A stretch of DNA of 64,000 nucleotides from a phage. Position 1 is the first letter of the stretch; each line of letters opens with the position of its first letter. Made by a program: the position numbers and the translations under genes. The stretch is from the sequence record PZ445431.1. One strand, 5' to 3'. The notes beneath the pieces were generated by a model. The model saw only the letters and a program-made list of their open reading frames with translations. It was not told where the DNA came from and did not search any database. Shown piece after piece: positions 19,812 through 64,000 of this stretch.

Positions 19812-20867
19812 ATGATTAAGACTGGTCTAGTAATTGGTAAGTTCGCACCATTAACACGTGGTCATATTAACCTAATAAACACAGCAGCAACTATGTGTGA
19901 ACGAGTTATAGTTGTAGTTAGTCATGATAATCGCTGGCTGGATAAACAAAACACACGTGATCAGGAAGTCTTACAGTTAAAGAACCGACTTCGTTGGTTA
20001 GAACAAACTTACGCGGATATTGAGCACATTTCGGTAGAGTACATTATTGAAGATGATATTCCTGAATATCCGAATGGTTGGCCGGAATATGCTAGAATAC
20101 TTAATGAAAATTATGGACATTTGCCTGAGATCACCATTTTCTCTAGCGAACTAGACTATGATGCAGAATATAAGAAATATCTGCCGAAGTTTGGTCATTA
20201 TATTGTAGATTCTGATCGGACTCGTGTTCCAATCTCAGCTACAATGATTCGTAATGATCTTATGAAGTATTGGGAGTTTCTTCCTAGCGTAGTTCGTAAA
20301 GATTACGTGCGTAAGGTTGTAATCATTGGGACTGAAAGCTCGGGAAAGACTACTTTAACAAAATACCTTGCGAAGCTATACAACACTTCGTGGGTAGAAG
20401 AATATGGTCGAACGTATTGTGAAGTTGATCTAGTTGGTAACGAAAATCTGCTTACCAGCGAAGATTATAGTAAAATTGCGTTCAGACACAAAGAGCTAGA
20501 GTTTGAAGCAGAACGTACTGCAAATAAGATCATGTTTGTGGATACAAATGCTTTTATTACTGAGTTCTACCACAGACTTTATGAACATAGTAAGAATCCT
20601 GTGGTTACAGCAATTGCAAAAGAAGAACATTATGATTTAGTAATTGTTCTAGCGCCTACTGTCAAGTGGGTAGATGATGGTTTACGTATTAACTCCGATC
20701 GTTCAATTACTTCTGAACTGTTCGAGCAGATGAAGAAAGAATTTCCAAATCAGTTCCCTGAAGGGCGTACTGTTTACATCGACTCTCCGGACTACAAAGT
20801 TCGTATGGACGAAGCAGTAAACGCAGTAGACTGGCTGATTCATCACTTTAACGTTGGAGAGTTTTAA
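19812..20867 (+). CDS. nadR: NadR-like bifunctional NMN adenylyltransferase / ribosylnicotinamide kinase (no HTH domain)
   Basis: GKFAPLTRGHINLI nucleotidyltransferase motif and VVIIGTESSGKTTLTKYLAKLYNTSWVEEYGR P-loop closely matching NadR; start ATG 19812 after conserved leader GAGAGAGGAATCAAAT. Confidence 0.8.
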   Translation: MIKTGLVIGKFAPLTRGHINLINTAATMCERVIVVVSHDNRWLDKQNTRDQEVLQLKNRLRWLEQTYADIEHISVEYIIEDDIPEYPNGWPEYARILNENYGHLPEITIFSSELDYDAEYKKYLPKFGHYIVDSDRTRVPISATMIRNDLMKYWEFLPSVVRKDYVRKVVIIGTESSGKTTLTKYLAKLYNTSWVEEYGRTYCEVDLVGNENLLTSEDYSKIAFRHKELEFEAERTANKIMFVDTNAFITEFYHRLYEHSKNPVVTAIAKEEHYDLVIVLAPTVKWVDDGLRINSDRSITSELFEQMKKEFPNQFPEGRTVYIDSPDYKVRMDEAVNAVDWLIHHFNVGEF

Positions 20868-20868
20868 T

Positions 20869-21546
20869 ATGACTAACTATCTCGTAAATGACTTTAAAAA
20901 CTGGAAACCTCTGGAATATCTGTGGCTGTTCATAGCGGTTGTCTTCATTAGTTTAGCAAACTATAATGGTACAGCTCTAGATTGGGCTACTGCAATAACC
21001 AATGTGGTTTGTGTTATTCTGGTTGCAAAAGGACGTGTTTCCAACTATATTTGGGGCTTAGTGGGTGTTCTTACATATGGTATTACAGCTTTAAACGCAG
21101 ATCTTTATGGTAACGCTGCACTAAACCTGCTATACTACGTTCCTATGCAGTTTTATGGAATGTACTTATGGCATAAAAATAAGCCAAGTAATCTGCCGGA
21201 TGTTCCAACTAAGGTTCTGACTAAAGCCCAAGCTCTGCTGACTCTAGGGATTCTAGCAGTAGCCACGTTAGGGTATGGTAGTTTCTTAGCTACTACGGCT
21301 GATCCATTTCCAATGTTGGATGCATTTACTGCGGTAGGTAGTGTGATCGCTATGTGGCTTATGGTTAAGCAGTATGCCGAGCAGTGGCTGATCTGGATTG
21401 CTATTAACATTGGTACTGTGTACATTTGGCTTGTAACTGCTCAATCTACAGGTGCATCTTATGCAATCCTAGCAATGTGGCTAGTATTCTTAGGTAACTC
21501 TATTATGGGAGCCTATAAAGGATACTTTGTACGCGTTAACAAATAA
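20869..21546 (+). CDS. pnuC: PnuC-family nicotinamide riboside transporter
   Basis: Multi-TM 226 aa protein with Trp-rich PnuC-like helices, immediately downstream of the nadR-like gene. Confidence 0.7.
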   Translation: MTNYLVNDFKNWKPLEYLWLFIAVVFISLANYNGTALDWATAITNVVCVILVAKGRVSNYIWGLVGVLTYGITALNADLYGNAALNLLYYVPMQFYGMYLWHKNKPSNLPDVPTKVLTKAQALLTLGILAVATLGYGSFLATTADPFPMLDAFTAVGSVIAMWLMVKQYAEQWLIWIAINIGTVYIWLVTAQSTGASYAILAMWLVFLGNSIMGAYKGYFVRVNK

Positions 21547-21553
21547 AGTAGTT

Positions 21554-21580
21554 ATAGCCCTCGCTTAGAGGGCTATTATA
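21554..21580 (+). terminator. rho-independent terminator
   Basis: TAGCCCTC-GCTTA-GAGGGCTA hairpin followed by TTATAC. Confidence 0.6.
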
Positions 21581-21593
21581 CAGAAATTTTCAC

Positions 21594-21622
21594 TTGCTTA
21601 ATATAGAAAATTTCTGTATAAT
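21594..21622 (+). promoter_or_regulatory. T5-type early promoter
   Basis: TTGCTT 21594-21599, TATAAT 21617-21622. Confidence 0.7.
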
Positions 21623-21652
21623 ATATTTATAAATTTGAGAGAGGAATCAAAT

Positions 21653-21949
21653 ATGAAACGCATTGTACTTGCATTGACTCTAGTATCTACTTCTGTATTT
21701 GCTGCTCCACAACAGGAACTTTGTCAAGTTCAAGTTTGTAATAAGCTAGAACGATTTACTCTAGACATTTGGTCACATATTAAAGATAATATGGGTGAAC
21801 AGTGTTTTGATATTGTTCTGCCAAAAGAACAAGCTGTTCCTGGTGCTGTTCTCAGTTCAGAATCACGTTGGTGGCAGGGTTCTTCTATCAATCCAACTAA
21901 GAAGTCAGTGACACGTATCAAACAAGTATATCAGTGCAATGTTCAGTAA
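21653..21949 (+). CDS. secreted small Cys-containing protein
   Basis: Signal peptide MKRIVLALTLVSTSVFA; four Cys; conserved promoter/leader upstream. Confidence 0.6.
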   Translation: MKRIVLALTLVSTSVFAAPQQELCQVQVCNKLERFTLDIWSHIKDNMGEQCFDIVLPKEQAVPGAVLSSESRWWQGSSINPTKKSVTRIKQVYQCNVQ

Positions 21950-21957
21950 AATTTCAC

Positions 21958-21986
21958 TTGCTTAATGCCGAAATTTTCTGTATAAT
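21958..21986 (+). promoter_or_regulatory. T5-type early promoter driving tRNA-Ser/tRNA-CAU
   Basis: TTGCTT 21958-21963, TATAAT 21981-21986; tRNA starts 15 nt downstream. Confidence 0.7.
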
Positions 21987-22000
21987 ATATTCATAATTTC

Positions 22001-22091
22001 GGAAGATTAACCCTAAAGGTAAGGGAGCTGTTTGCTAAACAGCTAGTAGCTGTGGAAACACGGTGTGCCAGTTCGAGTCTGGCATCTTCCT
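22001..22091 (+). tRNA. tRNA-Ser (anticodon GCU), type II
   Basis: Perfect acceptor GGAAGAT/ATCTTCC, anticodon arm GCTGT-TTGCTAA-ACAGC, long variable arm, T-arm GCCAG-TTCGAGT-CTGGC, encoded CCA. Confidence 0.75.
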
Positions 22092-22099
22092 CCAAATTT

Positions 22100-22174
22100 G
22101 GTTCTCAAGCTCATTTGGTATGAGCCGTCGCCTCATAAGCGAAAGGTAGGTAGGTTCGAATCCTCCGGGAGCCA
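22100..22174 (+). tRNA. tRNA with CAU anticodon (Met/fMet or Ile-lysidine)
   Basis: Acceptor GGTTCTC/GGGAGCC (two G-U), anticodon loop CTCATAA, T-loop TTCGAAT, encoded CCA. Confidence 0.6.
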
Positions 22175-22194
22175 CCAATTAACTAGGAGACGAT

Positions 22195-22380
22195 ATGTCT
22201 AAGTTTCAGGAATTGAAGCAGGAACTAGAAGAGTGTGCCTGCCCAAAATGCTTCGGAGCAGGTGAATGGAACGATGCTGAACCTGGTGATACATGGTATA
22301 ATACATACGTTTGTACACATTGTAATGGTTCTGGTATTAATCCTGAATGCGGTATTTCTCTAGGTATTGAGCGAGGCTAA
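22195..22380 (+). CDS. hypothetical Cys-rich (zinc-ribbon-like) small protein
   Basis: CxxC ... CxxC pairs in 61 aa; AGGAG RBS. Confidence 0.5.
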   Translation: MSKFQELKQELEECACPKCFGAGEWNDAEPGDTWYNTYVCTHCNGSGINPECGISLGIERG

Positions 22381-22381
22381 G

Positions 22382-22714
22382 ATGGATATTTACACTACAC
22401 CAGCAGTAAACCTGATTGGCTCTTGCCTTGTGCATTTCCGCTTCTTCCAAACGGATGATAGCAAAGAGGAGTATACCTATCCTCTGATGGATTTTCAGAT
22501 TGAGGACTTCTTCCGTGAAGTGCGTAATATCTCTGAGAACTTCTATTATGGCATGGATAAGGAAGACTTTGACATTGAGTTCCCTATAATCTCTCGTTAT
22601 TTCCTAGAGCAGTCCGACGCTCGGTTTGAGAAGATTGAACACATGGAAGTAGCCTGGGCTATCCAGTTCGAAATTACTGGCTTTGCTCGATACATTCAAG
22701 GTTACGAACTATGA
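22382..22714 (+). CDS. hypothetical protein (about 110 aa)
   Basis: ORF; start moved to internal ATG 22382 to avoid overlap. Confidence 0.5.
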   Translation: MDIYTTPAVNLIGSCLVHFRFFQTDDSKEEYTYPLMDFQIEDFFREVRNISENFYYGMDKEDFDIEFPIISRYFLEQSDARFEKIEHMEVAWAIQFEITGFARYIQGYEL

Positions 22715-22809
22715 AATTAAAAGATTATTATATTGGTTGGTTTGTAGGACTAATAGTAGGATTTTCACTGGGCTACAACTTGTATCAACTGATAAACTGA
22801 TTACATGGG
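22714..22809 (+). CDS. possible small hydrophobic peptide (31 aa)
   Basis: ATGA-coupled to upstream stop; single predicted TM; overlaps the 5' end of the following tRNA by 3 nt. Confidence 0.25.
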
Positions 22810-22880
22810 GGTGTAATCGAATTGGCATAGGTACTGGACTTAAAATTCAGGTTTTGTGGGTTCGAATCCCACCACCCCTA
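22807..22880 (+). tRNA. tRNA, anticodon UAA by eye (Leu-type anticodon on a short-variable-arm body)
   Basis: Acceptor GGGGGTG/CACCCCT, anticodon arm CTGGA-CTTAAAA-TTCAG, T-arm GTGGG-TTCGAAT-CCCAC, A73, encoded CCA. Confidence 0.55.
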
Positions 22881-22898
22881 CCAAATTAAGGAAATAAA

Positions 22899-23021
22899 AT
22901 GAAAGCTATTAAGAAAGCACTGCGTAAATTTATGTATTGTCGTTTTCATAGCATCAAGGCTTCAACTAATGGTACTACTTACGATCGCTATGATCCTAAG
23001 TTTGGCTTACATTCTAAATAA
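22899..23021 (+). CDS. possible small basic protein (40 aa)
   Basis: AAGGAA RBS then ATG; not in track (<60 aa). Confidence 0.3.
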   Translation: MKAIKKALRKFMYCRFHSIKASTNGTTYDRYDPKFGLHSK

Positions 23022-23035
23022 CTGGAGAAAACAAA

Positions 23036-23241
23036 TGGCTAATCCTGAAATTACGGCACAACGCTTTATGCTGAAAGGAATTATTGCTGAAGCAGGCATG
23101 ACAGAAGAAGTTGCAGATTTTCAAAAGCAATTCCTCAATATTCTCACTCAAGCCAAAGAGCTAGGAGAGAAAGAACATGGCGCGGCTATTATGGCAATCA
23201 CATTGGTTGGGCTTGATCTGGCTGAAGAATCAGGAGTTTAA
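23036..23241 (+). CDS. hypothetical protein (68 aa)
   Basis: ATG 23036 after GGAGAA RBS; track form 22969..23241 begins inside the preceding small ORF. Confidence 0.45.
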
Positions 23242-23271
23242 CTCCTCCAAGCAGAAATTTTAAAAATGTAC

Positions 23272-23301
23272 TTGCTTTTTACTTAAGATTTCTGCTATAA
23301 T
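23272..23301 (+). promoter_or_regulatory. T5-type early promoter (N18 spacing)
   Basis: TTGCTT 23272-23277, TATAAT 23296-23301. Confidence 0.6.
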
Positions 23302-23330
23302 AGTTATATAAGTTGATGAGAGGAATCAGA

Positions 23331-23597
23331 ATGTTAAAACGTTTTGCAGCAACTGGTATTGAAAGCTCAGTATGTAAATCCTGGGGTGGTTGGGAAGGTG
23401 AGATCGAGTGGCTTTATTTCTACAATGTAGAACTTCTTCCAGAGATCAAAGCTCAATGTATTGAGGCTGGTATGGCTCCTGATGCTACGGCTGATGTTGA
23501 AATCAGCATGAATAAGCTAGAGGGTCGAGTAGTCACTGTTACTGATGAAGGTGAAGAGGTATTCGAACTTCCATTCACTTTGAAAGTCACTCCTTAA
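23331..23597 (+). CDS. hypothetical protein (88 aa)
   Basis: ATG directly after conserved leader TTGATGAGAGGAATCAGA. Confidence 0.55.
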   Translation: MLKRFAATGIESSVCKSWGGWEGEIEWLYFYNVELLPEIKAQCIEAGMAPDATADVEISMNKLEGRVVTVTDEGEEVFELPFTLKVTP

Positions 23598-23642
23598 TTT
23601 GATTAACTGATACAGCACTGAGCAAGTTCTTTAAAATTTGAC

Positions 23643-23671
23643 TTGCTCAGTCCTTCAAAACTTGATATAAT
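23643..23671 (+). promoter_or_regulatory. T5-type early promoter driving tRNA-Tyr/Glu cluster
   Basis: TTGCTC 23643-23648, TATAAT 23666-23671. Confidence 0.65.
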
Positions 23672-23735
23672 AGTTATCTAATTTGGAAAACATATTTAAA
23701 AGTGTTTAAACTAGTATTTGAATATTTCTAAATAT

Positions 23736-23823
23736 GTTGGATTAGTATCGTAGAGGTAGCGAAGCAGACTGTAAATCTGCCGACTCGGAAGGGTCTCGGG
23801 TGGTTCGACTCCATCATCCAACA
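23736..23823 (+). tRNA. tRNA-Tyr (anticodon GUA), type II
   Basis: Perfect acceptor GTTGGAT/ATCCAAC, anticodon arm GCAGA-CTGTAAA-TCTGC, long variable arm, encoded CCA. Confidence 0.75.
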
Positions 23824-23833
23824 CCAAATTTAA

Positions 23834-23907
23834 GTCCTGTTAGACAAACTGGTAAAGTCACTACCCTTTCAAGGTAGGATTTGCGGGTTCGATCCCCGCA
23901 CAGGACG
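23834..23907 (+). tRNA. tRNA-Glu (anticodon UUC)
   Basis: Perfect acceptor GTCCTGT/ACAGGAC, anticodon arm CTACC-CTTTCAA-GGTAG, T-arm GCGGG-TTCGATC-CCCGC, encoded CCA. Confidence 0.75.
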
Positions 23908-23917
23908 CCAATTTCTG

Positions 23918-23995
23918 CATTCCTAGAGTGTTACTGGACAGCATGTCGGTCTCCAAAACCGTACGGTCTAGGTTCGAGTCCTAGTAGGTTTGCCA
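23918..23995 (+). tRNA. tRNA-like gene, possibly Trp (CCA anticodon arm CGGT-CTCCAAA-ACCG); acceptor stem not resolved
   Basis: Anticodon arm and T-arm CTAGG-TTCGAGT-CCTAG resemble tRNA-Trp but I could not pair a 5' acceptor strand by eye. Confidence 0.35.
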
Positions 23996-24001
23996 ATATT
24001 T

Positions 24002-24073
24002 GCACCTTTAGCTGAGATGGATTAGCGCTTGCCTGAAGAGCTTGAGAGGTTCGTTCGATACGAACAGGGTGCA
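24002..24073 (+). tRNA. tRNA, anticodon not resolved by eye (possibly CCU)
   Basis: Acceptor GCACCTT/AGGGTGC, T-arm GTTCG-TTCGATA-CGAAC, encoded CCA; anticodon stem has a mismatch. Confidence 0.5.
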
Positions 24074-24087
24074 CCAATTTGAAGGAG

Positions 24088-24366
24088 ATGCTGATGCATC
24101 CTGAAAACTTCTTTATTTACTGTGCGGATAAGTCACTGAAACGCAGAATTAACAAAGTCTATCATTATCGTGCTAGTCAACAGCCTTATGTTTATGCTTT
24201 TGATGGAGATTACATCCCACTAGAACAGTTGGCCTGTGATTACATGGTTTTGAAGAACTTTGACGAGACAAAGATCTCAAGCGTTCATAATCGACAGAAC
24301 CCGTTAACGTGGAAATATAAGAAGAAAAAGAAAGGCATCAAATTCTTAAAAAATGTAGTTGCTTAA
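24088..24366 (+). CDS. hypothetical protein (about 92 aa)
   Basis: GAAGGAG RBS then ATG; 3' end overlaps the next promoter. Confidence 0.5.
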   Translation: MLMHPENFFIYCADKSLKRRINKVYHYRASQQPYVYAFDGDYIPLEQLACDYMVLKNFDETKISSVHNRQNPLTWKYKKKKKGIKFLKNVVA

Positions 24367-24387
24367 CCGCTTAAAGTTCTGTATAAT
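24359..24387 (+). promoter_or_regulatory. T5-type early promoter embedded in the 3' end of a CDS
   Basis: TTGCTT 24359-24364, TATAAT 24382-24387. Confidence 0.65.
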
Positions 24388-24416
24388 TATTACATAAATT
24401 GAACTGGAGAAGCAAC

Positions 24417-24641
24417 ATGACAGAACAAGAATTGAAAGAACGTAAGCTGGTAATGCTTCGCTTACTAAACATTTTCTCTGGTATGGATGGTGGTATTGAC
24501 TTCATTCAACTACGCACTTTTGTAGAAGAAGCAGAAGGCGAGGCTATCACTAGGATTCTTAAACATATGGGTTTGTTACTAGATGCTGCTAATGTGGCTA
24601 CTCAATATAAACTCGAAGATTTACCGGAGCGTGTTAAATGA
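24417..24641 (+). CDS. hypothetical protein (74 aa)
   Basis: ATG after conserved leader; track start 24399 lies inside the leader. Confidence 0.55.
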   Translation: MTEQELKERKLVMLRLLNIFSGMDGGIDFIQLRTFVEEAEGEAITRILKHMGLLLDAANVATQYKLEDLPERVK

Positions 24642-24829
24642 AAATGTTAGTTAAATTTAAGTGTTGTGGTTCTGAACATATTTTCACTCGTTATAGAGAG
24701 TTTAAGATGTGTGAGTGCGGTAAATCAGGCTACGATGCTGGAGATGGCTATTATGCTAGATCTATAGGACATTCTAAAGATCTAGAGTTTACTAATCTCG
24801 AAAAGCAAGATAAATCGACCGTTGGCTGA
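24638..24829 (+). CDS. hypothetical Cys-rich small protein (63 aa)
   Basis: CC...CxC cluster; overlapping ATGA coupling. Confidence 0.5.
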   Translation: MKMLVKFKCCGSEHIFTRYREFKMCECGKSGYDAGDGYYARSIGHSKDLEFTNLEKQDKSTVG

Positions 24830-24888
24830 ATGGCTTAGGCGGAGGCCTGCAAAACCTCCTTATGTGAGTTCGAATCTCATGCGGTCGT
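24816..24888 (+). tRNA. tRNA-Cys (anticodon GCA)
   Basis: Acceptor CGACCGT/GCGGTCG, anticodon arm GAGGC-CTGCAAA-ACCTC with a C-A closing mismatch, T-arm GTGAG-TTCGAAT-CTCAT, encoded CCA. Confidence 0.55.
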
Positions 24889-24898
24889 CCAAATTTTA

Positions 24899-24978
24899 GG
24901 GTCGTTAGCCAAGCGGTTTGGCGGTGGACTGTTAATCCATGTCGAAAGACAACGTAGGTTCGAATCCTACACGGCCCG
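24899..24978 (+). tRNA. tRNA-Asn (anticodon GUU) with unusually long variable region
   Basis: Acceptor GGGTCGT/ACGGCCC, anticodon arm GTGGA-CTGTTAA-TCCAT (close to E. coli tRNA-Asn), extra hairpin GTCGAAAGAC before the T-arm, encoded CCA. Confidence 0.55.
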
Positions 24979-25084
24979 CCATATTCTGTGTAGAGTTAAG
25001 TAAACCGGTAGCCAACCAGCTATCATTGCTGATATCGAATTCAGTCACAGATACCATTTTTCATTAACAACTGAGGAAATAGAT

Positions 25085-25270
25085 ATGACAACTCGTGCAA
25101 TTGCTCGACTAGAAGCTGATCGTGATAATCTGATTAATAATATTAAGGTTCGTGGTAATATTATTAAGGCTCTGAAAGCTGAACTTCTTGAAGAACTTCA
25201 AGGTCAAGTAGAGCGTCGTGAAGCTCTAAAAGAGGTTGAGGAAGCTATCGAAAAACTCAAAACTGAGTAA
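25085..25270 (+). CDS. hypothetical coiled-coil protein (61 aa)
   Basis: GAGGAAA RBS. Confidence 0.5.
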   Translation: MTTRAIARLEADRDNLINNIKVRGNIIKALKAELLEELQGQVERREALKEVEEAIEKLKTE

Positions 25271-25273
25271 ATT

Positions 25274-25855
25274 ATGCACGGAATATCCTTACCCATTCCA
25301 GGGTTTGAGGAGTACTTAGTAAGTTTGGATGGGTTAGTATTTAGTATCAAATCAAACAAAATACTAACCCAAATAACCAGTAATTACGGATACTTATCTA
25401 TACGTCTCCATAAAAATGGTCAACAGAGAAATACCGGTGTACATAGGATTTTAGCATGTGCATTTAAGAAATTACCAAGTCTAGACTCTGAACTAGAAGT
25501 TGACCATATTAACACAGACATTACTTATTGGGGTCTTAATAACTTACAAGTGCTCACAAAAGAGCAGCATCTAGAAAAGACTTTAAAAGATAAAGGATTT
25601 AGTAAACTAAACCATGATAATTGTTGTAAGGATTGTGGTAAAGCTATTTCTTTAAAAGCTGAAAAATGTCAGGAGTGCTCTTCACATAAACCAAAAGATA
25701 TCTCTATAACTAAAGAAATAATCGAGGTTACAGTAAGAGAGCTAGGCTGGTCAGGTGCAGGGAGAAAGTTAAGTTATTCAGATAATGGGTTGCGTAAAAG
25801 ATACACTTCTTTAGGAGGCAATCCTAAAGAACTTAAAAAGTTAAAGGTACTATAG
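25274..25855 (+). CDS. HNH homing endonuclease (NUMOD-type N-terminus)
   Basis: IPGFEEYLVSLDGLVFS N-terminal motif and VDHINTD...NNLQVL HNH core; stop codon lies inside the acceptor stem of the next tRNA. Confidence 0.75.
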   Translation: MHGISLPIPGFEEYLVSLDGLVFSIKSNKILTQITSNYGYLSIRLHKNGQQRNTGVHRILACAFKKLPSLDSELEVDHINTDITYWGLNNLQVLTKEQHLEKTLKDKGFSKLNHDNCCKDCGKAISLKAEKCQECSSHKPKDISITKEIIEVTVRELGWSGAGRKLSYSDNGLRKRYTSLGGNPKELKKLKVL

Positions 25856-25917
25856 TCTAACGGTTAGGATACTCCCCTGTCACGGGAGAGGTAGGGTTTC
25901 GATTACCCTTAGTACCG
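25846..25917 (+). tRNA. tRNA-Asp (anticodon GUC)
   Basis: Perfect acceptor GGTACTA/TAGTACC, anticodon arm CTCCC-CTGTCAC-GGGAG, T-arm AGGGT-TTCGATT-ACCCT, encoded CCA; 5' end overlaps the HNH gene stop. Confidence 0.75.
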
Positions 25918-25926
25918 CCAAATTAT

Positions 25927-26000
25927 ACATCCATAGCTCAATTGGTTAGAGCTACCGCCTCTTAAGCGGTAGGTTCTAGGTTCAAGTCCTTCATTGGAGA
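25927..26000 (+). tRNA. tRNA-Lys-like (anticodon CUU); acceptor/T stems imperfect
   Basis: Canonical D-arm GCTCAATTGGTTAGAGC and anticodon arm ACCGC-CTCTTAA-GCGGT; acceptor pairing poor by eye. Confidence 0.4.
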
Positions 26001-26010
26001 CCAAACAATT

Positions 26011-26084
26011 GCGGGTTAGATCTTTGGTAGAGATCGCTAGTCTCATAAGCTAGAAAGAGGTAGGTTCGATTCCTGCACCCGCTT
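26011..26084 (+). tRNA. tRNA with CAU anticodon (second copy)
   Basis: Acceptor GCGGGTT/CACCCGC region, anticodon arm CTAGT-CTCATAA-GCTAG, T-arm GTAGG-TTCGATT-CCTGC, encoded CCA. Confidence 0.6.
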
Positions 26085-26108
26085 CCAATTTAATAGAAGG
26101 ATTTCGAA

Positions 26109-26273
26109 ATGAAATTATTTCGTTTAAAAGTAAGTGATTTACGTTCTAGCAAAGATCGTAAGAAGTATCCACTAGCCCATTACGGTAAAGATGAAAACGA
26201 AGTGATGGCGGAATTTGGTATTAATCACCCTTACTTAAAAGTTTATTCTATTAAGGAAGTCTATGCTAATTAA
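26109..26273 (+). CDS. hypothetical small protein (54 aa)
   Basis: AAGGA RBS then ATG; not in track (<60 aa). Confidence 0.4.
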   Translation: MKLFRLKVSDLRSSKDRKKYPLAHYGKDENEVMAEFGINHPYLKVYSIKEVYAN

Positions 26274-26736
26274 TAAAGTTTTAGCTGCCTTAAACCTTCC
26301 TGATAACTTCATTATAGATGATAAGCTCATAAGAGCTTATATGAGCAAATATAACGAAATTTCAGGTAAAGAAGGTAAGTTAAAAACTTCAGAGTTTAGA
26401 TTCTGTTATCGAATGGCAGCCTTAAATCTCTTAAAATATAAAAGGGAGCATAAAATACCTATAACGGAAGGTTTTGTATATGTAATTGGTAATCCAGCAT
26501 GGCCAGGCATGTATAAAATAGGTATGACTATAGATGTGAATGAGAGGTTAACAAGTTATCAAACTTATTCACCTAATAGAGACTACAAGCTATACCATTT
26601 CAGATTTTCGTCGGATAAAAGACGTACAGAGAAAGAATTACATAATCTTCTTAAAGATTATAGAGTATCTGGAGAATGGTTTGAAGTACCTGTACTAGAT
26701 GCTTTTAAATTATTAGTAGAAAAATTGGATTGCTAG
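26263..26736 (+). CDS. T5orf172-domain (GIY-YIG-like) protein, putative homing endonuclease
   Basis: GFVYVIGNPAWPGMYKIGMTIDVNERL matches the T5orf172/GIY-YIG-like core; 3' end overlaps the next tRNA acceptor stem. Confidence 0.6.
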   Translation: MLINKVLAALNLPDNFIIDDKLIRAYMSKYNEISGKEGKLKTSEFRFCYRMAALNLLKYKREHKIPITEGFVYVIGNPAWPGMYKIGMTIDVNERLTSYQTYSPNRDYKLYHFRFSSDKRRTEKELHNLLKDYRVSGEWFEVPVLDAFKLLVEKLDC

Positions 26737-26801
26737 CTCAACTGGATAAGAGTAGCGGACCTTTAATCCGTCAGTTCTGGGTTCGAATCCCAGGCAATCC
26801 A
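26727..26801 (+). tRNA. tRNA, anticodon UUU by eye (Lys) with C at position 33
   Basis: Perfect acceptor GGATTGC/GCAATCC, T-arm CTGGG-TTCGAAT-CCCAG, encoded CCA. Confidence 0.55.
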
Positions 26802-26808
26802 CCAAATT

Positions 26809-26879
26809 GCTCGGTTAGTTTAATGGGAGAACCCCGTCTTTACACGGCGGTTGCGATAGTTCGATTCTATCACCGAGTA
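26809..26879 (+). tRNA. tRNA-like gene with apparent 6-nt anticodon loop (anticodon unresolved)
   Basis: Acceptor GCTCGGT/ACCGAGT, perfect T-arm GATAG-TTCGATT-CTATC, encoded CCA; only CCGT/ACGG pairs around loop CTTTAC. Confidence 0.45.
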
Positions 26880-26906
26880 CCACTCAACTAAAATAAGGAA
26901 TTGCAA

Positions 26907-27143
26907 ATGCAATTATCATCTAAAGTTCAAGGTTTCTTCGCACATGCAACAGCAGAATTTGCTATTAGCAAGGGTTGGGATTTTGAGCAAGAACTTTCTG
27001 AGTTCTATAAAGATATAGATATGAATACGCCATACATGGGACTCTCCACTGGTCAAGAGATCACAGAAGGCGATGTGTTCAAGGCAAGTCAAGGTGAGGT
27101 AACACCTAGTTTTGCCGCTTTTTTGGAGTGGCTTCACAATTAA
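26907..27143 (+). CDS. hypothetical protein (78 aa)
   Basis: AAGGAA RBS; second in-frame ATG chosen for spacing. Confidence 0.5.
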   Translation: MQLSSKVQGFFAHATAEFAISKGWDFEQELSEFYKDIDMNTPYMGLSTGQEITEGDVFKASQGEVTPSFAAFLEWLHN

Positions 27144-27252
27144 AGAAGAAGCTCCAGATGATGATGTATTTATGCAAAGCATGCACTCTGGGAGTTCTGA
27201 TATGTTATTTGTTAAAGATGTACGACATATCCAAGAAGTGGTAAAAACGCAG

Positions 27253-27281
27253 TTGCTTAATGCTTAATTTCTTGTTATAAT
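27253..27281 (+). promoter_or_regulatory. T5-type early promoter driving ORF-free/tRNA-like segment
   Basis: TTGCTT 27253-27258, TATAAT 27276-27281. Confidence 0.7.
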
Positions 27282-27284
27282 ATT

Positions 27285-27615
27285 TATATAAATTGATGCG
27301 AAAATAGCTGCCTAGATACCAGGTGTATGACGTCTACACTAGCAGAGCTACCGAAAAAGAGATCCTCAGGATAAACGTCGTAGCAAAATTAGTCTGGTAT
27401 CCATTAATTTAGTTCACTAAGGTATTAGCTCGACCTAGGACTGGCTGCCAAAAAGCACGATCCCTACGATTTGGGAGAAGTTCTAGATTAGTCCACTAGA
27501 TTCAGCGGCAACTGAATAGTGTATCGGGTTTGTGAAGAGCAGCTATTCTCTACTGGCTAATGTCTGAGGTTAGTACGCACACCGAGCTAATAGCCTTAGT
27601 AAACTTAAAGAATTT
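27285..27615 (+). ncRNA. candidate non-coding RNA (ORF-free segment downstream of consensus promoter)
   Basis: About 330 nt with no ORF >=60 aa after promoter 27253-27281; long-range complement GATACCAG (27308) / CTGGTATC (27394) and hairpin ATTCAG-CGGCAA-CTGAAT. Confidence 0.35.
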
Positions 27616-27688
27616 GGGCGAATAGTGTCAGCGGGAGCACACCAGACTTGCAAGTCTGGTAGGGAGGGTTCGAGTCTCTCTTTGTCCA
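27616..27688 (+). tRNA. tRNA-like gene with non-canonical anticodon loop (6 or 8 nt around TTGCAA)
   Basis: Acceptor GGGCGAA/TTTGTCC (two G-U), D-stem GTGT/ACAC, stem CCAGAC/GTCTGG, T-arm GAGGG-TTCGAGT-CTCTC, encoded CCA. Confidence 0.45.
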
Positions 27689-27706
27689 CCAAATTAAAAA
27701 GAATGC

Positions 27707-27780
27707 GCGCGATTGACGGAATAGGTATACGTGTCAGCCTTAGAAGTTGAATTTTGAGGGTTCGAATCCCTTGTCGCGCA
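27707..27780 (+). tRNA. tRNA, anticodon UAG by eye (Leu-type anticodon on a short-variable-arm body)
   Basis: Perfect acceptor GCGCGAT/GTCGCGC, anticodon arm TCAGC-CTTAGAA-GTTGA, T-arm GAGGG-TTCGAAT-CCCTT, A73, encoded CCA. Confidence 0.55.
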
Positions 27781-27908
27781 CCAAATTTGATGGTCAGAGT
27801 AAATTAAACCTACTATCTCGGTTGAGCTGTTTTAATGGATTCGAATCCCAGCGAGGCGTAACTGCCTGGCGTGATAGAGGCATCATTCCACTAACATTGG
27901 AAAAACTA

Positions 27909-28139
27909 ATGAAACGAAAATTAAAAAAGTCTTATATAATTAAGATAAATAAGCTACGAAGTAGGGCAAAAGGATGGCCACTTCGAATATTAATTGCGGA
28001 TAACCATATTAGATACCATGCGGAACAACATCATTACAAACAGTGGGAGTCATACTGTCGCTCAAAAGCAGGTCGTTTAGATGGATCTTATGAGCTTCTA
28101 TTTGGTAAGAAGCCTACTAGATTAGCTTTAGGTAAGTAA
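27909..28139 (+). CDS. hypothetical basic protein (76 aa)
   Basis: Internal ATG of track ORF 27747..28139; the upstream part of that ORF overlaps tRNA-like sequence. Confidence 0.35.
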   Translation: MKRKLKKSYIIKINKLRSRAKGWPLRILIADNHIRYHAEQHHYKQWESYCRSKAGRLDGSYELLFGKKPTRLALGK

Positions 28140-28144
28140 TACTT

Positions 28145-28235
28145 GGAAAAGCAAATAGACTGGCGACTAAACCCGATTGGAAATCGGTTGAGTAATAGCA
28201 ATATTGCCTTATGGGTTCAACTCCCATCTTTTCCG
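28145..28235 (+). tRNA. tRNA-Ser (anticodon GGA), type II
   Basis: Perfect acceptor GGAAAAG/CTTTTCC, anticodon arm CCCGA-TTGGAAA-TCGGT, long variable arm, T-arm ATGGG-TTCAACT-CCCAT, encoded CCA. Confidence 0.7.
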
Positions 28236-28253
28236 CCAAATATTGGAGTATAG

Positions 28254-28769
28254 ATGCTAACACAACAAGAATTAAAATCCGTGTTGTTATATAAACCAGA
28301 TACTGGAGAGTTTTTCTGGAAATATAGATCTGATTTAGATAGTCAATGGAATAGTAAATATGCTGGAACTAGGGCAGGATTTATTAATGAACTAGGCTAT
28401 TGGAAGATAACTCTAGGAAATACTAGCTGGTTAGCACATCGTCTAGCATTCTTATACATGACTGGGGAAATACCAGATCTAATTGACCACAAGGATCAAG
28501 ATAAGTCCAATACTAAATGGGATAACTTACGAATAGCCACTGTATCACAGAATCAGGCTAATGCTAAATTAAGGGTAGATAATACCTCTGGGTACAAAAA
28601 TGTAACTTGGCATAAGCAAAGAAATAAGTGGAAAGTAGAAGTACGTAAAGATGGCAAACTCCATTATGGTGGACTTTTTACAGAACTAGATAAAGCTGTA
28701 AATAAAGCTAATAATCTTAGACGTGAGTTATTCGGGGAATTTGCAGTATATGAAGAGTTTATGGGGTAG
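28254..28769 (+). CDS. HNH homing endonuclease with AP2-type DNA-binding domain
   Basis: Same architecture as 6957..7472 (ELK..LYKPDTG.F.W, IDHKDQDKSNTKWDNLR, AP2-like SGYKNVTWHK); stop lies inside the next tRNA acceptor stem. Confidence 0.8.
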   Translation: MLTQQELKSVLLYKPDTGEFFWKYRSDLDSQWNSKYAGTRAGFINELGYWKITLGNTSWLAHRLAFLYMTGEIPDLIDHKDQDKSNTKWDNLRIATVSQNQANAKLRVDNTSGYKNVTWHKQRNKWKVEVRKDGKLHYGGLFTELDKAVNKANNLRRELFGEFAVYEEFMG

Positions 28770-28856
28770 GTCAATCCAACGGCTGGCGCTGGACTCCGAC
28801 TTGAAATCGGTTGATCGTAGTGATACGGTGTAAGGGTTCGATCCCCTTACCTACCT
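28765..28856 (+). tRNA. tRNA-Ser (anticodon UGA), type II
   Basis: Perfect acceptor GGTAGGT/ACCTACC, anticodon loop CTTGAAA, long variable arm, T-arm AAGGG-TTCGATC-CCCTT, encoded CCA. Confidence 0.7.
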
Positions 28857-28879
28857 CCAATTAACTATAAGGAATCCTT

Positions 28880-29053
28880 ATGAGCAAAACAGCTACTGTA
28901 ACAATGAAGGATGGTACAAAATTTAAAGCATGTCTTCATGAAACAGATAATGGATGGAAGGCTTATTTGCCACACCTAGATTCCACTGGGTATGGAATGA
29001 CCCAACGTGAAGCTATTGTTGATGCTTTAAATGAGGCTTCCGCTGGTTTATAA
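28880..29053 (+). CDS. hypothetical small protein (57 aa)
   Basis: TAAGGAA RBS then ATG; not in track (<60 aa). Confidence 0.4.
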   Translation: MSKTATVTMKDGTKFKACLHETDNGWKAYLPHLDSTGYGMTQREAIVDALNEASAGL

Positions 29054-29060
29054 AAATTCT

Positions 29061-29191
29061 TGGAATATGCCGGAATTGGTAGACGGGACTGCCGAATAGG
29101 TTTACTAGGAACATCCACTCCTAGAAATATACCTTAAAAGCGGTTGAGTTAAATGGTATAACTCATGAAGGTTCAAGTCCTTCTATTCCTT
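29061..29191 (+). tRNA. tRNA-like element of abnormal length (about 131 nt, or 85 nt from alternative 5' end); possible insertion-containing or degenerate tRNA
   Basis: Leu-like D-arm TGCCGGAATTGGTAGACGGG near 5' end, perfect T-arm GAAGG-TTCAAGT-CCTTC at 3' end, acceptor candidates pair 6/7, no encoded CCA. Confidence 0.3.
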
Positions 29192-29312
29192 GATACATCA
29201 ATGGCTCAAAGTGTAACGGTGCTATTTGATGCTCTTGGCAAGACTTCCCCGACATGCGTTCGGGAGTAAGCTGCTAAGACTAGAGTAGAAGAGTTTCAAC
29301 AAGACAACGATA

Positions 29313-29384
29313 GCTCTTAAAGCATTGCTGGCGATGCAGTTGCCTTGTAAGCATCTGAACCGGGTTCGATTCCTAGTGGGAGCA
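29313..29384 (+). tRNA. tRNA-Thr (anticodon UGU)
   Basis: Acceptor GCTCTTA/TGGGAGC (two G-U), D-arm GCAT...ATGC, anticodon arm GTTGC-CTTGTAA-GCATC, T-loop TTCGATT, encoded CCA. Confidence 0.55.
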
Positions 29385-29403
29385 CCAAAATTAAAAAATT
29401 CAT

Positions 29404-29432
29404 TTGCCTTCTCTCTTATTTCTTGTTATTAT
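29404..29432 (+). promoter_or_regulatory. early promoter variant (TTGCCT-N17-TATTAT)
   Basis: -35 at 29404-29409, -10 at 29427-29432. Confidence 0.55.
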
Positions 29433-29462
29433 ATTTATATAAATTAATGAGAGGGAAACCAA

Positions 29463-29756
29463 ATGAAACGTTATCTTTCTGTTATGTTCCAAACTGGTGG
29501 TCAACGCTATACTTATGAATTTCCATCTTCTTGGAAGATCAAAGAAGGTGATCAAGTAGTAGTGTTAACACCGCGTGATGGTTTCAAGGTAGTAACGGTT
29601 AAGCAAGTATTTCCAAAAGATCACGAACCATCTAAGGCTATTCAGTACAAGATGATTCATGGTCTGGTACGAAAAGTACCTAGAACAGAAGTCGAAGTAG
29701 ATAAAACTGGGGAAGCTAAATACCAGTATACCTCTTACTTAGACGAGTTGTTATAA
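29463..29756 (+). CDS. hypothetical protein (97 aa)
   Basis: ATG directly after conserved leader AATTAATGAGAGGGAAACCAA. Confidence 0.55.
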   Translation: MKRYLSVMFQTGGQRYTYEFPSSWKIKEGDQVVVLTPRDGFKVVTVKQVFPKDHEPSKAIQYKMIHGLVRKVPRTEVEVDKTGEAKYQYTSYLDELL

Positions 29757-29962
29757 TGGGAATTACTTTCACAGAAAAGATTATGGGCAATGGTGTTATG
29801 ATCATTACCGCATGGGATGGTAATCAGTGGTGTAGTGTTTCAGGTATTAAGCCTGAAGAACAAACACTAGAAAATATCTCAAAGATTAAGCGAAGAATGG
29901 CAGAACGTGCACGACTTCCAGGTGCGCCTAGAAATGGTAAACGTTCTGCAATTAAATGTTAA
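29756..29962 (+). CDS. hypothetical protein (68 aa)
   Basis: ATAATG-coupled ORF. Confidence 0.5.
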   Translation: MGITFTEKIMGNGVMIITAWDGNQWCSVSGIKPEEQTLENISKIKRRMAERARLPGAPRNGKRSAIKC

Positions 29963-29963
29963 T

Positions 29964-30037
29964 GCTTCGGTAGCTTAGCGATCTAAAGCACTCGGCTGAT
30001 AACCGAGAGATCGGGGGTTTAAATCCCTCCCGGAGTA
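29964..30037 (+). tRNA. tRNA-Ile (anticodon GAU)
   Basis: Acceptor GCTTCGG/CCGGAGT (two G-U), anticodon arm CTCGG-CTGATAA-CCGAG, T-arm GGGGG-TTTAAAT-CCCTC, encoded CCA. Confidence 0.65.
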
Positions 30038-30058
30038 CCAAATTTAGGAAGTAAGACT

Positions 30059-30133
30059 ATGCGTCCAGGAAAGTTTAAAAAAAAAAAAAAGCTAATTGGT
30101 CTAAAGAGTATAAAGAATATTTACTTAGTCTAG
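30059..30133 (+). CDS. possible mini-ORF (24 aa) containing an A14 homopolymer
   Basis: ATG after TAGGAAG; translation MRPGKFKKKKKLIGLKSIKNIYLV; coding status doubtful. Confidence 0.2.
   Translation: MRPGKFKKKKKLIGLKSIKNIYLV
30077..30090. repeat. A14 homopolymeric tract
   Basis: 14 consecutive A between tRNA-Ile and the third CAU tRNA. Confidence 0.95.
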
Positions 30134-30144
30134 TAAAACATAAT

Positions 30145-30217
30145 AGTTAGTTGGCAGAGTGGTTATGCACCTCCTTCATACGGAGCGACTACAGTGGTTC
30201 AAATCCACTACTAACTA
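30145..30217 (+). tRNA. tRNA with CAU anticodon (third copy)
   Basis: Perfect acceptor AGTTAGT/ACTAACT, anticodon loop TTCATAC, T-arm AGTGG-TTCAAAT-CCACT, encoded CCA. Confidence 0.6.
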
Positions 30218-30258
30218 CCATAAAAAAGAGCTAGAGATAGCTAAATATAGGAGCAAGT

Positions 30259-60563: not shown

Positions 60564-60809
60564 TTAGGAGGAACACCGGTCTACCGGCTTGTATCCTGAT
60601 TCTGACATACGAAATCTCCTCCGCGATGCCCGAGATCCATCCGACCACTCTCGCTCAAACTCCTCCCGTTTCTCCGCAAACTTCCGCTCCCTTTCCGAAA
60701 GCTCCCGCGATACTCCCGCAATATATTCACGATGCTTATTAATCGCCCCGAGTGTTCCGAAGATTCCCGCAAGCACCCCGATAATGAAGATAGCCACAAA
60801 ACTAAACAT
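60564..60809 (-). CDS. hypothetical membrane-anchored protein (81 aa)
   Basis: N-terminal TM helix then Arg/Glu-rich tail. Confidence 0.45.
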   Translation of the reverse strand: MFSFVAIFIIGVLAGIFGTLGAINKHREYIAGVSRELSERERKFAEKREEFEREWSDGSRASRRRFRMSESGYKPVDRCSS

Positions 60810-60912
60810 TACTTGTCTCCCCGCAGCTTACGTTCGATACGAGCTAAGTGGTTATCTAAGATGCACTGTCCGATAATTACCACAACTAGTAAAGCAATAA
60901 TTACTACTTCCA

Positions 60913-61098
60913 TTATAACCACCCCGCCATAGCTGCTAACCAAAAGAGTACAAAGATAAAGAATAACACAGTCCCGAATCCGAAACTATTTATCCAACTT
61001 TCGTACACTTCCCCGCGTCTGTTCTTTCTTCTGTTGTCGTCTGACATCTCTTTGCTTCTCCTGTAGTCTTGGTATTTGGAATACCCTAGCAATTGCAC
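60913..61098 (-). CDS. hypothetical tail-anchored membrane protein (61 aa)
   Basis: C-terminal TM helix; overlapping alternative ORF 60986..61177 not chosen. Confidence 0.35.
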   Translation of the reverse strand: MQLLGYSKYQDYRRSKEMSDDNRRKNRRGEVYESWINSFGFGTVLFFIFVLFWLAAMAGWL

Positions 61099-61376
61099 GA
61101 ACCATTATGACTGTCCCGATAAGATCCATTACTTCATCAAAGCCGGATTCTTCTAGTAAGAAGGATGTTCCCATCACGTCTTCTATTGTATCTTCTATGA
61201 CGTCTTGAATGATTTCATCAATTGCATCATGTATTGCTTTTTATTCCTGGGATTTATTTCAAAGTTAACAGGTTCCTGAAAGGACTTTTCTTCATCTTGC
61301 ATTGTGTTTGCTACCTGTACCTCATCCCAGAAATAAAAATTTTTGTTTACTTCGAGATCTTTTTACTTTATACTAA

Positions 61377-61643
61377 TTACAAGTGACCAGATTGTTCTAG
61401 TTTAAATTTGCAATCACCATATTTGAGATCAAACTGTGACAAATCCCACCACCCAAACTTAGTGCGTAACTGAGTTTTAGGGAATCGGTAGCCCACAGTA
61501 CGTGCTTCTCGAATATCTAAAGCGTAGTGTTCTTCACCAACATGACCATAAGACTTCACATATGCCTTACAAAATGGCTCGGGAGCTGGCACACAACCCG
61601 TCAACACTACTGCTGCAACTACGATGGCTAGTAACTTTTTCAT
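61377..61643 (-). CDS. llp: lipoprotein, lytic-conversion (Llp-like) candidate
   Basis: Signal peptide with lipobox MKKLLAIVVAAVVLTGC; divergently adjacent to the pb5-like gene, as llp/oad in T5. Confidence 0.65.
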   Translation of the reverse strand: MKKLLAIVVAAVVLTGCVPAPEPFCKAYVKSYGHVGEEHYALDIREARTVGYRFPKTQLRTKFGWWDLSQFDLKYGDCKFKLEQSGHL

Positions 61644-61726
61644 AATCGTTCCTCTGTTTAATTTATAAATATATTATAGCAAAATAGAGGGATCTAAGCA
61701 AATACATTTTTAAAGAAGGAGATTGT

Positions 61727-63508
61727 ATGAGTTTTTTCGCAGGAAAATTTAGTGATGGTAAAACTGTATTATCTCTAAACGCTGCTAATGGTGGTGATAT
61801 AAATCAGCACTACTCTCCAAATACTAATAGTATCTTCCACTCAGATATGCCATTTGTCCTAGTTGATGGGACTTATGAAGCAGCCCTAGGTAACGCAGGT
61901 AATGGATACTTTGTTACTCAGATGCCTTGGGATATTATAAATATTAAATCCAATGATCCGGGTAGAGTTATATTAACTGCTATTGAGATAAACGGTACTC
62001 ATCGTGGATTTCTGAATGGTACTCAATCTCAGGTTGGCCAGTTCTTATCATTCTTTGAAGACCCACCACGTGCTGGTGCTGAATTATCTGTAACATCTGC
62101 TTTTGCGATCGGTGATAGTTTAGCTCATGGTACTTATATCTATAATGGTGGTCTTGGTCATGAGGAATCTATTGCTAGGCAAGGTTCTGGAGGCAGTTTA
62201 CTACAGTCCTCTGGTTTCCAGATCTTTAGACCTGGTGGTGTTTCTGCTGGTGAAGCCATTGCCAGAGCCTGGAGTCTTATGGGTTTTCCAACTGGTGTCT
62301 CTACTGTTCCTTTAGATGGTGGTAACGCAGATTATTGGGAACCTAACTGGCAGGCGCCTATTGGTTCTGCTGGTAGAGGCCATGATTGGTTTTATGTTTG
62401 TAGTTCTAATATTCGTGGCTTCGCAGGTAAAAAAGGCGTACTACCAGATAACGTAAACGTTCTTTACCAATCTCCTGCATACCCAGAAAAAATATATGTT
62501 TGTAGAGGTTCTACTTCTAATATGGCTGCTCAGTCTGCTAGAAAGGTATATGTACAGGACTGGTATAACGTTACGCCAACTAAGGTTATTTGGTATGTGC
62601 TAAATCTGCGCTATTCTAATGGTAGTATGGGAGTTTCTGGTAATCCATTTACCGGTTCAGATATCCTAATATCTCCGTCTAATTTTACTATTAAAGGTGT
62701 TAGCCTACCAAATACAGGCTATAAATTTATTAACCAGAATGCTTTCGGAAACTTAGGCTATCGCCCTGATATGGAGTATGTTGGTAATAACGCTGCGTAT
62801 ACCGGAGTTTTTGGTGATAATACTGCACGATGTGAATTTATCGGCTCTAGTAATGGCGGGTTGTGGTCTCCTGTTAACTATGGGGGTGCAGCTTCTCAAA
62901 TTAGCTTATATAAATTTGGTATAGGTAAACAATGGTATGTAGATACTAATACCAACTCCATTGGTAATGAACATGGACCTGTGTGGAGTCCTAGTACTGT
63001 ACCCCTCAGGTTATTCCCAGGCAACGTTGCAAGTACTTATGTAGGGGACGATATAACTCCATCCTACCCTGGTGCTGGTGACTTCTACACACCTTTGGCC
63101 ACAGTTTGGTTGGGATTACCAAATGCTCACTCTACTGTTATATTAACTACTGAAGTTATTATGGGTAATCTTAATACTGCTGGAATGCCTGTGCGTACTT
63201 ACGGCGGTAGCGCTTGGCAGGTACAAGGTAGACGTCAACAAAGTTATACAGCTGGTGATGGTGTATTCCACCAGATTCTTACTCTGCCACCTGGATATCT
63301 AGTACCTTATCACAGTACAACTTCCTATAGTTATATACAGACTTGGGCTAGTAGGCCTGATGAGTTTGCTTTCCGTAGGAACGGATATATTTATACTATT
63401 AAAAACCTTGGTAATGGCAACGTTGAGTTGGGTGTTATCATTCACGCTGCAGAAGCGGCAGCTGTTTTCTTGCCAAGACTACGTGTAACAGTTCAACGCC
63501 TAACCTAA
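61727..63508 (+). CDS. oad: receptor-binding tail protein, pb5-like
   Basis: 593 aa; N-terminus [41 protein letters not shown] follows the T5 pb5 N-terminal pattern as I recall it; divergent from llp-like gene. Confidence 0.65.
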
Positions 63509-63518
63509 AGGAGGATAT

Positions 63519-64000
63519 ATGGCAAATGATGTATTAGTTCCCGATCTCATGTCTCCCGAAGGCATGGATGTTATTGAAGCCTATTTACAGTGCGGTAGTG
63601 ATGTTCCTGCCGCCGCTCGTAGTCTTGGAATGTCCGAGATTGCATTCCGTGATATAATGAATCGTGGGGAAGTTAAAAACTATCTCAACGATATCTTTAT
63701 GGAAAGTGGCTTCCGTAATCGTGACCGCTTATTCGGAGTTCTTGACGAAGTTATCAAGCGTAAGCTGGAAGAACTTGAAGAAACTGGCATGGGTTCTGAC
63801 CAGGATATCATGGATATTCTCTGGAAGGCGCACAAGATGAAGATGGAAGAAATGAAAATGATGGTAGAACTGGAGAAAGTGAAGGCAGCAGCCCGTACTC
63901 CGGCTAACCAGACTAATATTCAGAATAATATTATTGCTGGAAGTGGTGACGAAAACTATATGAATCTTATTACCGCTCTAGCAGGAGGAGGTAAGAGATA
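63519..64000 (+). CDS. putative terminase small subunit-like protein, partial (3' end beyond window)
   Basis: AGGAGGA RBS; N-terminal helix-turn-helix-like segment ([21 protein letters not shown]) and charged coiled-coil region. Confidence 0.4.

Follow-up and report, generated by a model that had tools for sequence, protein, structure and literature searches.

The divergent llp and receptor-binding protein genes of Escherichia phage TrudiRoth compared with the modules of BF23 and T5

In phage BF23, the hrs/llp module reportedly comprises a receptor-binding protein (RBP), Hrs, which binds the outer-membrane transporter BtuB, and a lipoprotein that blocks BtuB, as is said to have been described by Mondigler et al. 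in 1996 and 2006. Phage T5 has a counterpart in the genes oad, encoding the receptor-binding protein pb5, and llp, but its receptor is FhuA. Structures are available for pb5 (8b14, 8a8c) and for the FhuA-Llp complex of van den Berg et al. 2022; T5 Llp jams FhuA from the periplasm, and an extension of this principle to other TonB-dependent transporters has been proposed (PMC9586334). Here we describe a pair of genes of this kind at positions 61377 to 63508 of a 64,000-nucleotide stretch of phage DNA (sequence record PZ445431.1; the whole stretch is called the window below). It is very probable that this locus serves phage TrudiRoth in host recognition and receptor blocking, as a module consisting of a BtuB-binding RBP and an Llp.

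Identity and layout of the locus

The window is Escherichia phage TrudiRoth (Bas30; Demerecviridae, Markadamsvirinae, Epseptimavirus). In a megablast of positions 40000-64000, the stretch 40000-63518 was identical (100.0% DNA identity over 23.5 kb) to positions 90970-114488 of the TrudiRoth record MZ501109. Position 63518 is the last base of that record, and 63519-64000 runs on into the small terminase gene, which is found at the start of related records. At the protein level, the RBP is 100% identical to TrudiRoth bas30_0206 (tblastn), and the lipoprotein is 100% identical to bas30_0205, annotated as 'superinfection exclusion protein'. Compared with this gene pair from the BASEL collection nothing is different, and the window merely continues beyond the point at which the linear record, as deposited, happens to end. 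It therefore comes from a copy of the record that had been circularised or re-permuted.

The receptor of this phage has been studied experimentally. According to the legends of S8 and S9 Fig of the BASEL paper, TrudiRoth 'targets BtuB', the resistance of the btuB knockout was fully complemented, and the phage serves as the BtuB reference of the collection (PMC8594841). Because this dependence and its complementation have been published and the RBP is identical to that of TrudiRoth, the receptor is BtuB, established for a phage with this exact sequence. The module is thus already known, being published and textbook knowledge for T5-like phages, and nothing in its anatomy departs from the published picture. 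A first-pass annotation of the window, made from the letters alone, had suggested alignment of the RBP, plating on btuB mutants and expression of llp as ways to examine the locus; essentially all of this has been published for TrudiRoth or its close relatives, as RBP alignment with receptor prediction across the Markadamsvirinae, as btuB-mutant plating and as llp expression for the sister allele.

The locus and its neighbours are laid out as follows.

61377 to 61643, minus strand: llp, an ATG open reading frame of 88 amino acids that begins MKKLLAIVVAAVVLTGC; putative receptor-blocking (superinfection-exclusion) lipoprotein of the BF23/BtuB type
61727 to 63508, plus strand: RBP gene, an ATG open reading frame of 593 amino acids; predicted tail-tip protein of the pb5/Oad/Hrs family, BtuB-specific allele
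61644 to 61726, between the two genes: divergent control region of 83 base pairs, start codon to start codon
59666 to 60400: dmp, whose position was compared with the gene order of bux, T5, BF23 and TrudiRoth
from 63519: terS, small terminase subunit, giving the gene order llp, RBP, terS

The listing of open reading frames gave both genes the coordinates and lengths that the first-pass annotation had reported, and its description of an 88-residue lipoprotein transcribed divergently from a 593-residue RBP was upheld, with 83 base pairs between the two starts. The arrangement had also been likened to llp/oad of T5, and synteny with T5 and BF23 (lipoprotein, RBP, small terminase) bears this out. 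The RBP gene lies between the divergent llp and the small terminase gene and borders the side of the terminal repeat (dmp, A1), in a gene order that the synteny comparison found to be common to bux, T5, BF23 and TrudiRoth. When positions 61200-63700 were searched with megablast, 239 phage records matched, the best being Salmonella phage bux with 99.8% DNA identity. In bux the two genes carry the names 'receptor-blocking protein' and 'receptor-binding tail protein', and next to them come the genes for the small and then the large terminase subunit. The module is likewise annotated in many other phages, with about 400 genomes in all. Since the two products match PHROG 1119 and PHROG 4815, respectively, and the pair is annotated in bux and others, we regard llp and the RBP gene as genuine genes and not as a chance pair of open reading frames.

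The lipoprotein and the probable blocking of BtuB

Judged by its sequence relatives, the lipoprotein is a member of the BF23-type Llp family, and it most likely blocks BtuB after infection. It is 68% identical to the receptor-blocking protein of BF23 over 88 of 88 residues (E 3e-48), 67% identical to the Llp of DT57C and 100% identical to the Llp of S132, a phage that is cited as BtuB-dependent in the BASEL paper (PMC8594841). In the published expression experiment, leaky expression of DT57C llp, which is one substitution away from BF23 llp, made BF23 and the phages of the DT57C group plate more than 100-fold less well and left T5 unaffected (Golomidova et al., PMC4728585). The family is represented by 10 clusters at 90% identity among 5.8 billion proteins, and homologues were present in 398 phage records, with 192 of them at an identity of at least 95% and 204 at 60-80%, which separates two allele groups.

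The signal peptide covers residues 1-16 (MKKLLAIVVAAVVLTG, followed by CV), and the lipobox LTG-C, at residues 14-17, places the lipidation site at Cys17. The first reading of the sequence had given this lipobox as VLTGC; residues 14-17 conform to the lipobox consensus, and Pfam LPAM_1 has a weak match to residues 1-17 (18.6 bits, slightly below the 20-bit cutoff). By the general rule of Lol sorting, the Val at position +2, directly after the lipidated cysteine, predicts sorting to the outer membrane. In an alignment of 11 homologues, Gly16, Cys17, Cys25 and Cys78 are invariant and the C-terminal half (GWWDLSQFDLKYGDCKFKLE) is strongly conserved. According to the family alignments, Cys25 and Cys78 occupy positions analogous to Cys11 and Cys58 of T5 Llp, a pair that is disulphide-bonded in the crystal structure of FhuA with Llp (PMC9586334); by this analogy, a Cys25-Cys78 disulphide probably ties the termini of the mature lipoprotein together.

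The mechanism that we propose begins with the RBP, the tip protein of the straight central tail fibre, which would bind BtuB, the TonB-dependent vitamin B12 transporter, and thereby bring about irreversible adsorption and DNA ejection; the need for btuB has been shown genetically in published work, and the structural details are modelled on pb5 and FhuA of T5. Within the RBP, the conserved N-terminal and central/C-terminal segments are held in common with T5 pb5, and the divergent residues from about 41 to 280 are of the BF23/EPS7 allele class. A sigma-70-type promoter presumably drives early synthesis of the lipoprotein, which would then be exported and lipidated on Cys17; with Val at +2 it would come to lie in the outer membrane, within the inner leaflet. 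There it would bind BtuB so that RBPs of the same class cannot bind, as shown for the BF23/DT57C allele and as expected for the allele of TrudiRoth. Such a block would result in superinfection exclusion and would also spare the progeny from inactivation on receptor in cell debris. In T5 fashion, the lipoprotein would attach to the periplasmic face or the plug of BtuB, the extracellular loops would fold inward and the binding site of the RBP would be closed allosterically, as in the 'reverse allostery' of FhuA. On the analogy with T5, we lean towards this jamming of the BtuB plug from the periplasm.

Several observations weigh against carrying the T5 mechanism over in this way. When the BtuB-type and T5-type family alignments were compared with hhalign, the probability was 94.6% with the signal peptide included, but after the signal peptide and the lipobox cysteine had been trimmed from both it fell to 0.5% (E 0.11), and a short C-[KE]-A-Y motif at the second cysteine was the sole part still aligned. 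The Foldseek search of the PDB with the AlphaFold2 model of the lipoprotein gave nothing below E 0.001 and did not retrieve T5 Llp, and T5 Llp was also absent among the top 50 matches of the model in BFVD. A sequence search of the PDB with the lipoprotein gave no match even at E 10. We found no solved structure of a BtuB-type RBP or Llp, or of either in complex with BtuB, in the PDB or in the literature searched, and no published exclusion experiment with the exact lipoprotein allele of Epseptimavirus, the tested BF23/DT57C allele being 67-68% identical to it. Because the mature lipoprotein has no detectable similarity to T5 Llp, the transfer of the T5 mechanism is based on analogy and not on homology. 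The lipoprotein is a functional analogue, and no demonstrated homologue, of T5 Llp and of Cor.

Remote homology of the mature protein to T5 Llp was accordingly rejected, the profile match being an artefact of the signal peptide. With BLASTP, the similarity to T5 Llp (E 0.059) was confined to the signal peptide region. Both types match PHROG 1119 'Cor superinfection exclusion protein' over their full length, the lipoprotein with E 1.2e-23 and T5 Llp with E 1.1e-19. The model of the lipoprotein (mean predicted local distance difference test, pLDDT, 82.6) consists of five beta strands followed by a C-terminal helix. Its best matches in the PDB were weak chromo/Tudor-like small barrels (best E 0.17), and in BFVD it matched the receptor-blocking protein of phiR2-01 strongly (E 1.4e-10) and, at the border of significance, A0A4P8EX77, a T1-like 'super-infection exclusion protein' of phage CEC_Kaz_2018 (E 2.5e-3, TM 0.46). 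A link to T5 Llp at the level of the fold was therefore without support in either Foldseek search. Comparison of folds is a weak test in this case, given the small size and the conformational plasticity of such proteins and the inaccuracy of the AlphaFold2 model of T5 Llp itself (PMC9586334).

These results give some ground to a different explanation, in which an independently evolved protein occupies the same genomic slot and blocks BtuB by other means than T5 Llp, such as occlusion from outside, disturbed assembly or abundance of BtuB, or a block after adsorption at the stage of channel formation or DNA entry. It would be in keeping with the loss of profile similarity once the signal peptide is removed, with the failure of a confident model to retrieve T5 Llp from either structure database and with the literature, in which the T5 and BF23 Llp are called non-homologous (PMC4728585). 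However, the two types share the divergent slot, the conserved promoter region, a similar size, a lipobox with an outer-membrane signal and the analogous pair of cysteines. BtuB and FhuA are also both TonB-dependent transporters with plug domains, for which the T5 study argues that jamming generalises, and the inaccuracy of the T5 Llp model makes fold comparisons of such tiny proteins weak evidence (PMC9586334). We therefore consider a non-T5 mechanism unlikely and retain plug jamming as the preferred reading.

A narrower question is that of ancestry. It is possible, although we are inclined to doubt it, that the mature domain of the BtuB-type Llp is evolutionarily unrelated to T5 Llp, and that a small beta-rich fold of another kind follows the promoter, signal peptide and lipobox, which are conserved. 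If so, lipoproteins that jam different TonB-dependent transporters would have arisen more than once in one cassette slot, and the BtuB-type Llp could also be swapped without the RBP, JLBYU43 with an identical Llp and an RBP of 70% identity being an example.

That the lipoprotein is no receptor blocker at all, but for instance a generic moron or the outer-membrane component of a spanin, is highly improbable. The Pfam matches are all below threshold (LPAM_1 as given above and Phage_lipoprotein with 15.2 bits) and the label 'Cor' of PHROG 1119 lumps several types together, which leaves room for such an assignment, but the protein shares 68% identity, from end to end, with the Llp type of BF23, which has been characterised by experiment, and its gene invariably adjoins the RBP gene in divergent orientation instead of lying in a lysis cassette. 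Moreover, the open reading frames listed for the window include no i-spanin partner gene that overlaps llp.

The label itself deserves caution. RefSeq names the lipoprotein 'Cor superinfection exclusion protein' after PHROG 1119, a name that suggests targeting of FhuA and is misleading for BtuB-type proteins. The Cor proteins of T1/phi80/N15-like phages are small lipoproteins of the outer membrane and exclude phages that rely on a TonB-dependent transporter, as is expected of the present lipoprotein, but they target FhuA, and PHROG 1119 is a remote-homology cluster in which several types are lumped. Salmonella phage GE_vB_N8 (MG969413), with a genome of 51 kb and thus not of T5 size, encodes at 13861-14070 a product that is 50.7% identical to the mature lipoprotein. 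Considering this match and the weak fold match in CEC_Kaz_2018, BtuB-type Llp may also occur in smaller siphoviruses.

The receptor-binding protein and its allele class

Over its full length the RBP is homologous to T5 pb5, although distantly, and it is closely related to BF23 Hrs and to the RBP of EPS7. It matches PHROG 4815 'receptor binding tail protein' over residues 1-593 (E 7.5e-282). The first-pass annotation had called the protein pb5-like, which the alignments with T5 and BF23 that it proposed confirm, as the RBP is homologous to both: identity to T5 pb5 (640 amino acids) is 29% from end to end (BLASTP, E 2e-51), the T5 pb5 structures 8b14 and 8a8c were the sole matches in a sequence search of the PDB (E about 4e-46), and identity to BF23 Hrs (595 amino acids) is 76.1% over the full length. 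The protein had further been said to diverge from pb5 beyond the N-terminus. In 40-residue blocks of a MAFFT alignment, identity to pb5 was 58% in residues 1-40 and dropped to 20-30% in 41-280, in line with that statement; it can be refined in that conserved islands reappear at 281-360 and 401-440 (40-50%), with about 22-25% elsewhere, and that the two proteins share their C-terminal end (...QRLT) in addition to the N-terminal MSFFAGK... Against BF23 Hrs, the least similar block was residues 161-200, with 52% identity.

Among the other relatives, the RBP is 96.3% identical to that of EPS7 and 59.1% identical to that of phiR2-01, whereas its identity to the other allele classes of this family that occur in the phage collection is about 28-33% (tblastn). 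The RBP is thus closely related to the BtuB-specific class formed by BF23 Hrs, EPS7, SPC35, DT57C and phiR2-01. Of these phages, BF23 and phiR2-01 have been published as BtuB phages, DT57C is a BtuB phage according to PMC4728585, and EPS7 is given as one, at second hand, in the BASEL paper (PMC8594841) and in the phiR2-01 paper. The suspicion raised in the first reading, that the receptor and the target of the lipoprotein might differ from FhuA, has therefore proved justified, the receptor being BtuB (PMC8594841). That the RBP might use FhuA, FepA or a new receptor instead is exceedingly improbable and in practice already refuted by the published knockout and complementation of btuB, since, although identity to BF23 Hrs is just 76% and the lowest block (161-200) lies inside the presumed receptor-recognition region, the protein is identical to the TrudiRoth RBP for which btuB dependence was shown, is 96% identical to that of the BtuB phage EPS7 and has merely 29% identity to the FhuA-type pb5 and about 28-33% to the remaining classes.

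Taken as a whole, the module agrees with hrs/llp of BF23 in gene order, divergent orientation, product sizes (595 and 88 amino acids in BF23), receptor class and intergenic promoter region, with identities of 76% for the RBP and 68% for Llp. It differs in that BF23 carries a Tequintavirus allele and TrudiRoth an Epseptimavirus allele, most divergent in block 161-200 of the RBP. With oad/llp of T5 it shares the architecture, the position beside the small terminase gene, RBP homology over the full length and the -35, -10 and Shine-Dalgarno blocks, and the two Llp have in common the style of signal peptide and lipobox, a similar size and the analogous cysteine pair. In contrast to T5, the receptor is BtuB instead of FhuA, the RBP is only 29% identical and the mature Llp has no detectable similarity in sequence or fold.

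Some phages combine an identical lipoprotein with a different RBP: JLBYU43 (OK272477) has an Llp of 100% and an RBP of 69.9% identity, and Sw2 (MH631454) an Llp of 100% and an RBP of 84.8% identity. In these phages Llp is more conserved than the RBP. Identical Llp together with divergent RBP implies, as far as sequence comparison goes, recombination between llp and the RBP gene within the module, and such recombination has been noted for DT57C by Golomidova et al. (PMC4728585).

For annotation, the value of the locus is that the alleles of RBP and Llp predict the use of BtuB by a phage. They also predict cross-exclusion and shared resistance mutations with other BtuB-dependent T5-like phages, which is relevant to the design of phage cocktails.

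The control region and neighbouring features

Within the 83 base pairs between the two start codons, the following elements were read.

61701 to 61696, minus strand: candidate -35 element of llp, TTGCTT, sigma-70-like, with a 17-nucleotide spacer to the -10 element
61681 to 61673, minus strand: candidate extended -10 element of llp, TGCTATAAT, a match to the pattern TGNTATAAT
61654 to 61650, minus strand: Shine-Dalgarno sequence of llp, GAGGA, by sequence reading
61716 to 61721, plus strand: Shine-Dalgarno sequence of the RBP gene, AAGGAG, preceding its ATG

In an alignment of the intergenic region with bux, BF23 and T5, the -35, -10 and Shine-Dalgarno blocks are invariant. The invariant blocks AAGCAA and TATTATA correspond on the minus strand to TTGCTT and TATAAT, 17 nucleotides apart and directed towards llp, and the GGAGA block of the Shine-Dalgarno sequence upstream of the RBP start is invariant as well. 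Between positions 61634-61736 of the window, T5 (L002:10341-10439) and BF23 (L003:1406-1510), 63 of 105 columns are invariant, the flanks of the start codons included. The records of T5 and BF23 have divergent promoters annotated at this intergenic position. A strict consensus promoter scan found no site between llp and the RBP gene, because the -35 agrees with the consensus at only 3 of 6 positions, and this counts against the promoter; the call for llp is at the level of consensus and is based on manual reading, the match to the extended -10 pattern and conservation. Use of the minus-strand promoter for llp is what we infer from these features.

The intergenic core is conserved across modules of the BtuB and FhuA types, in which the RBPs are 29% identical, the mature Llp show no relation and the flanking genes can barely or not be aligned as DNA. 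It looks as if the coding alleles were swapped around a regulatory core that stays in place as a fixed scaffold. Over the whole window, the extended -10 motif TGNTATAAT occurs 16 times, 13 of them on the plus strand, compared with 4.9 expected, and none of 100 shuffled sequences reached 16, as would fit an early region with many strong promoters of the host type.

Downstream of llp, several short open reading frames lie on the minus strand at 60564-61177, including one of 81 amino acids (60564-60809) with a hydrophobic N-terminal segment. They are located where T5 has the small single-transmembrane proteins T5.159-T5.162 and where BF23 and TrudiRoth have hypothetical proteins. Elsewhere in the window, 21 transfer RNA (tRNA) genes are clustered at 18292-30220, all on the plus strand. 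For one of them, at 27616-27691, ARAGORN gives the four-base anticodon 'tgca' and no amino acid; the anticodon loop of this gene may be unusual, or the gene may be a pseudo-tRNA.

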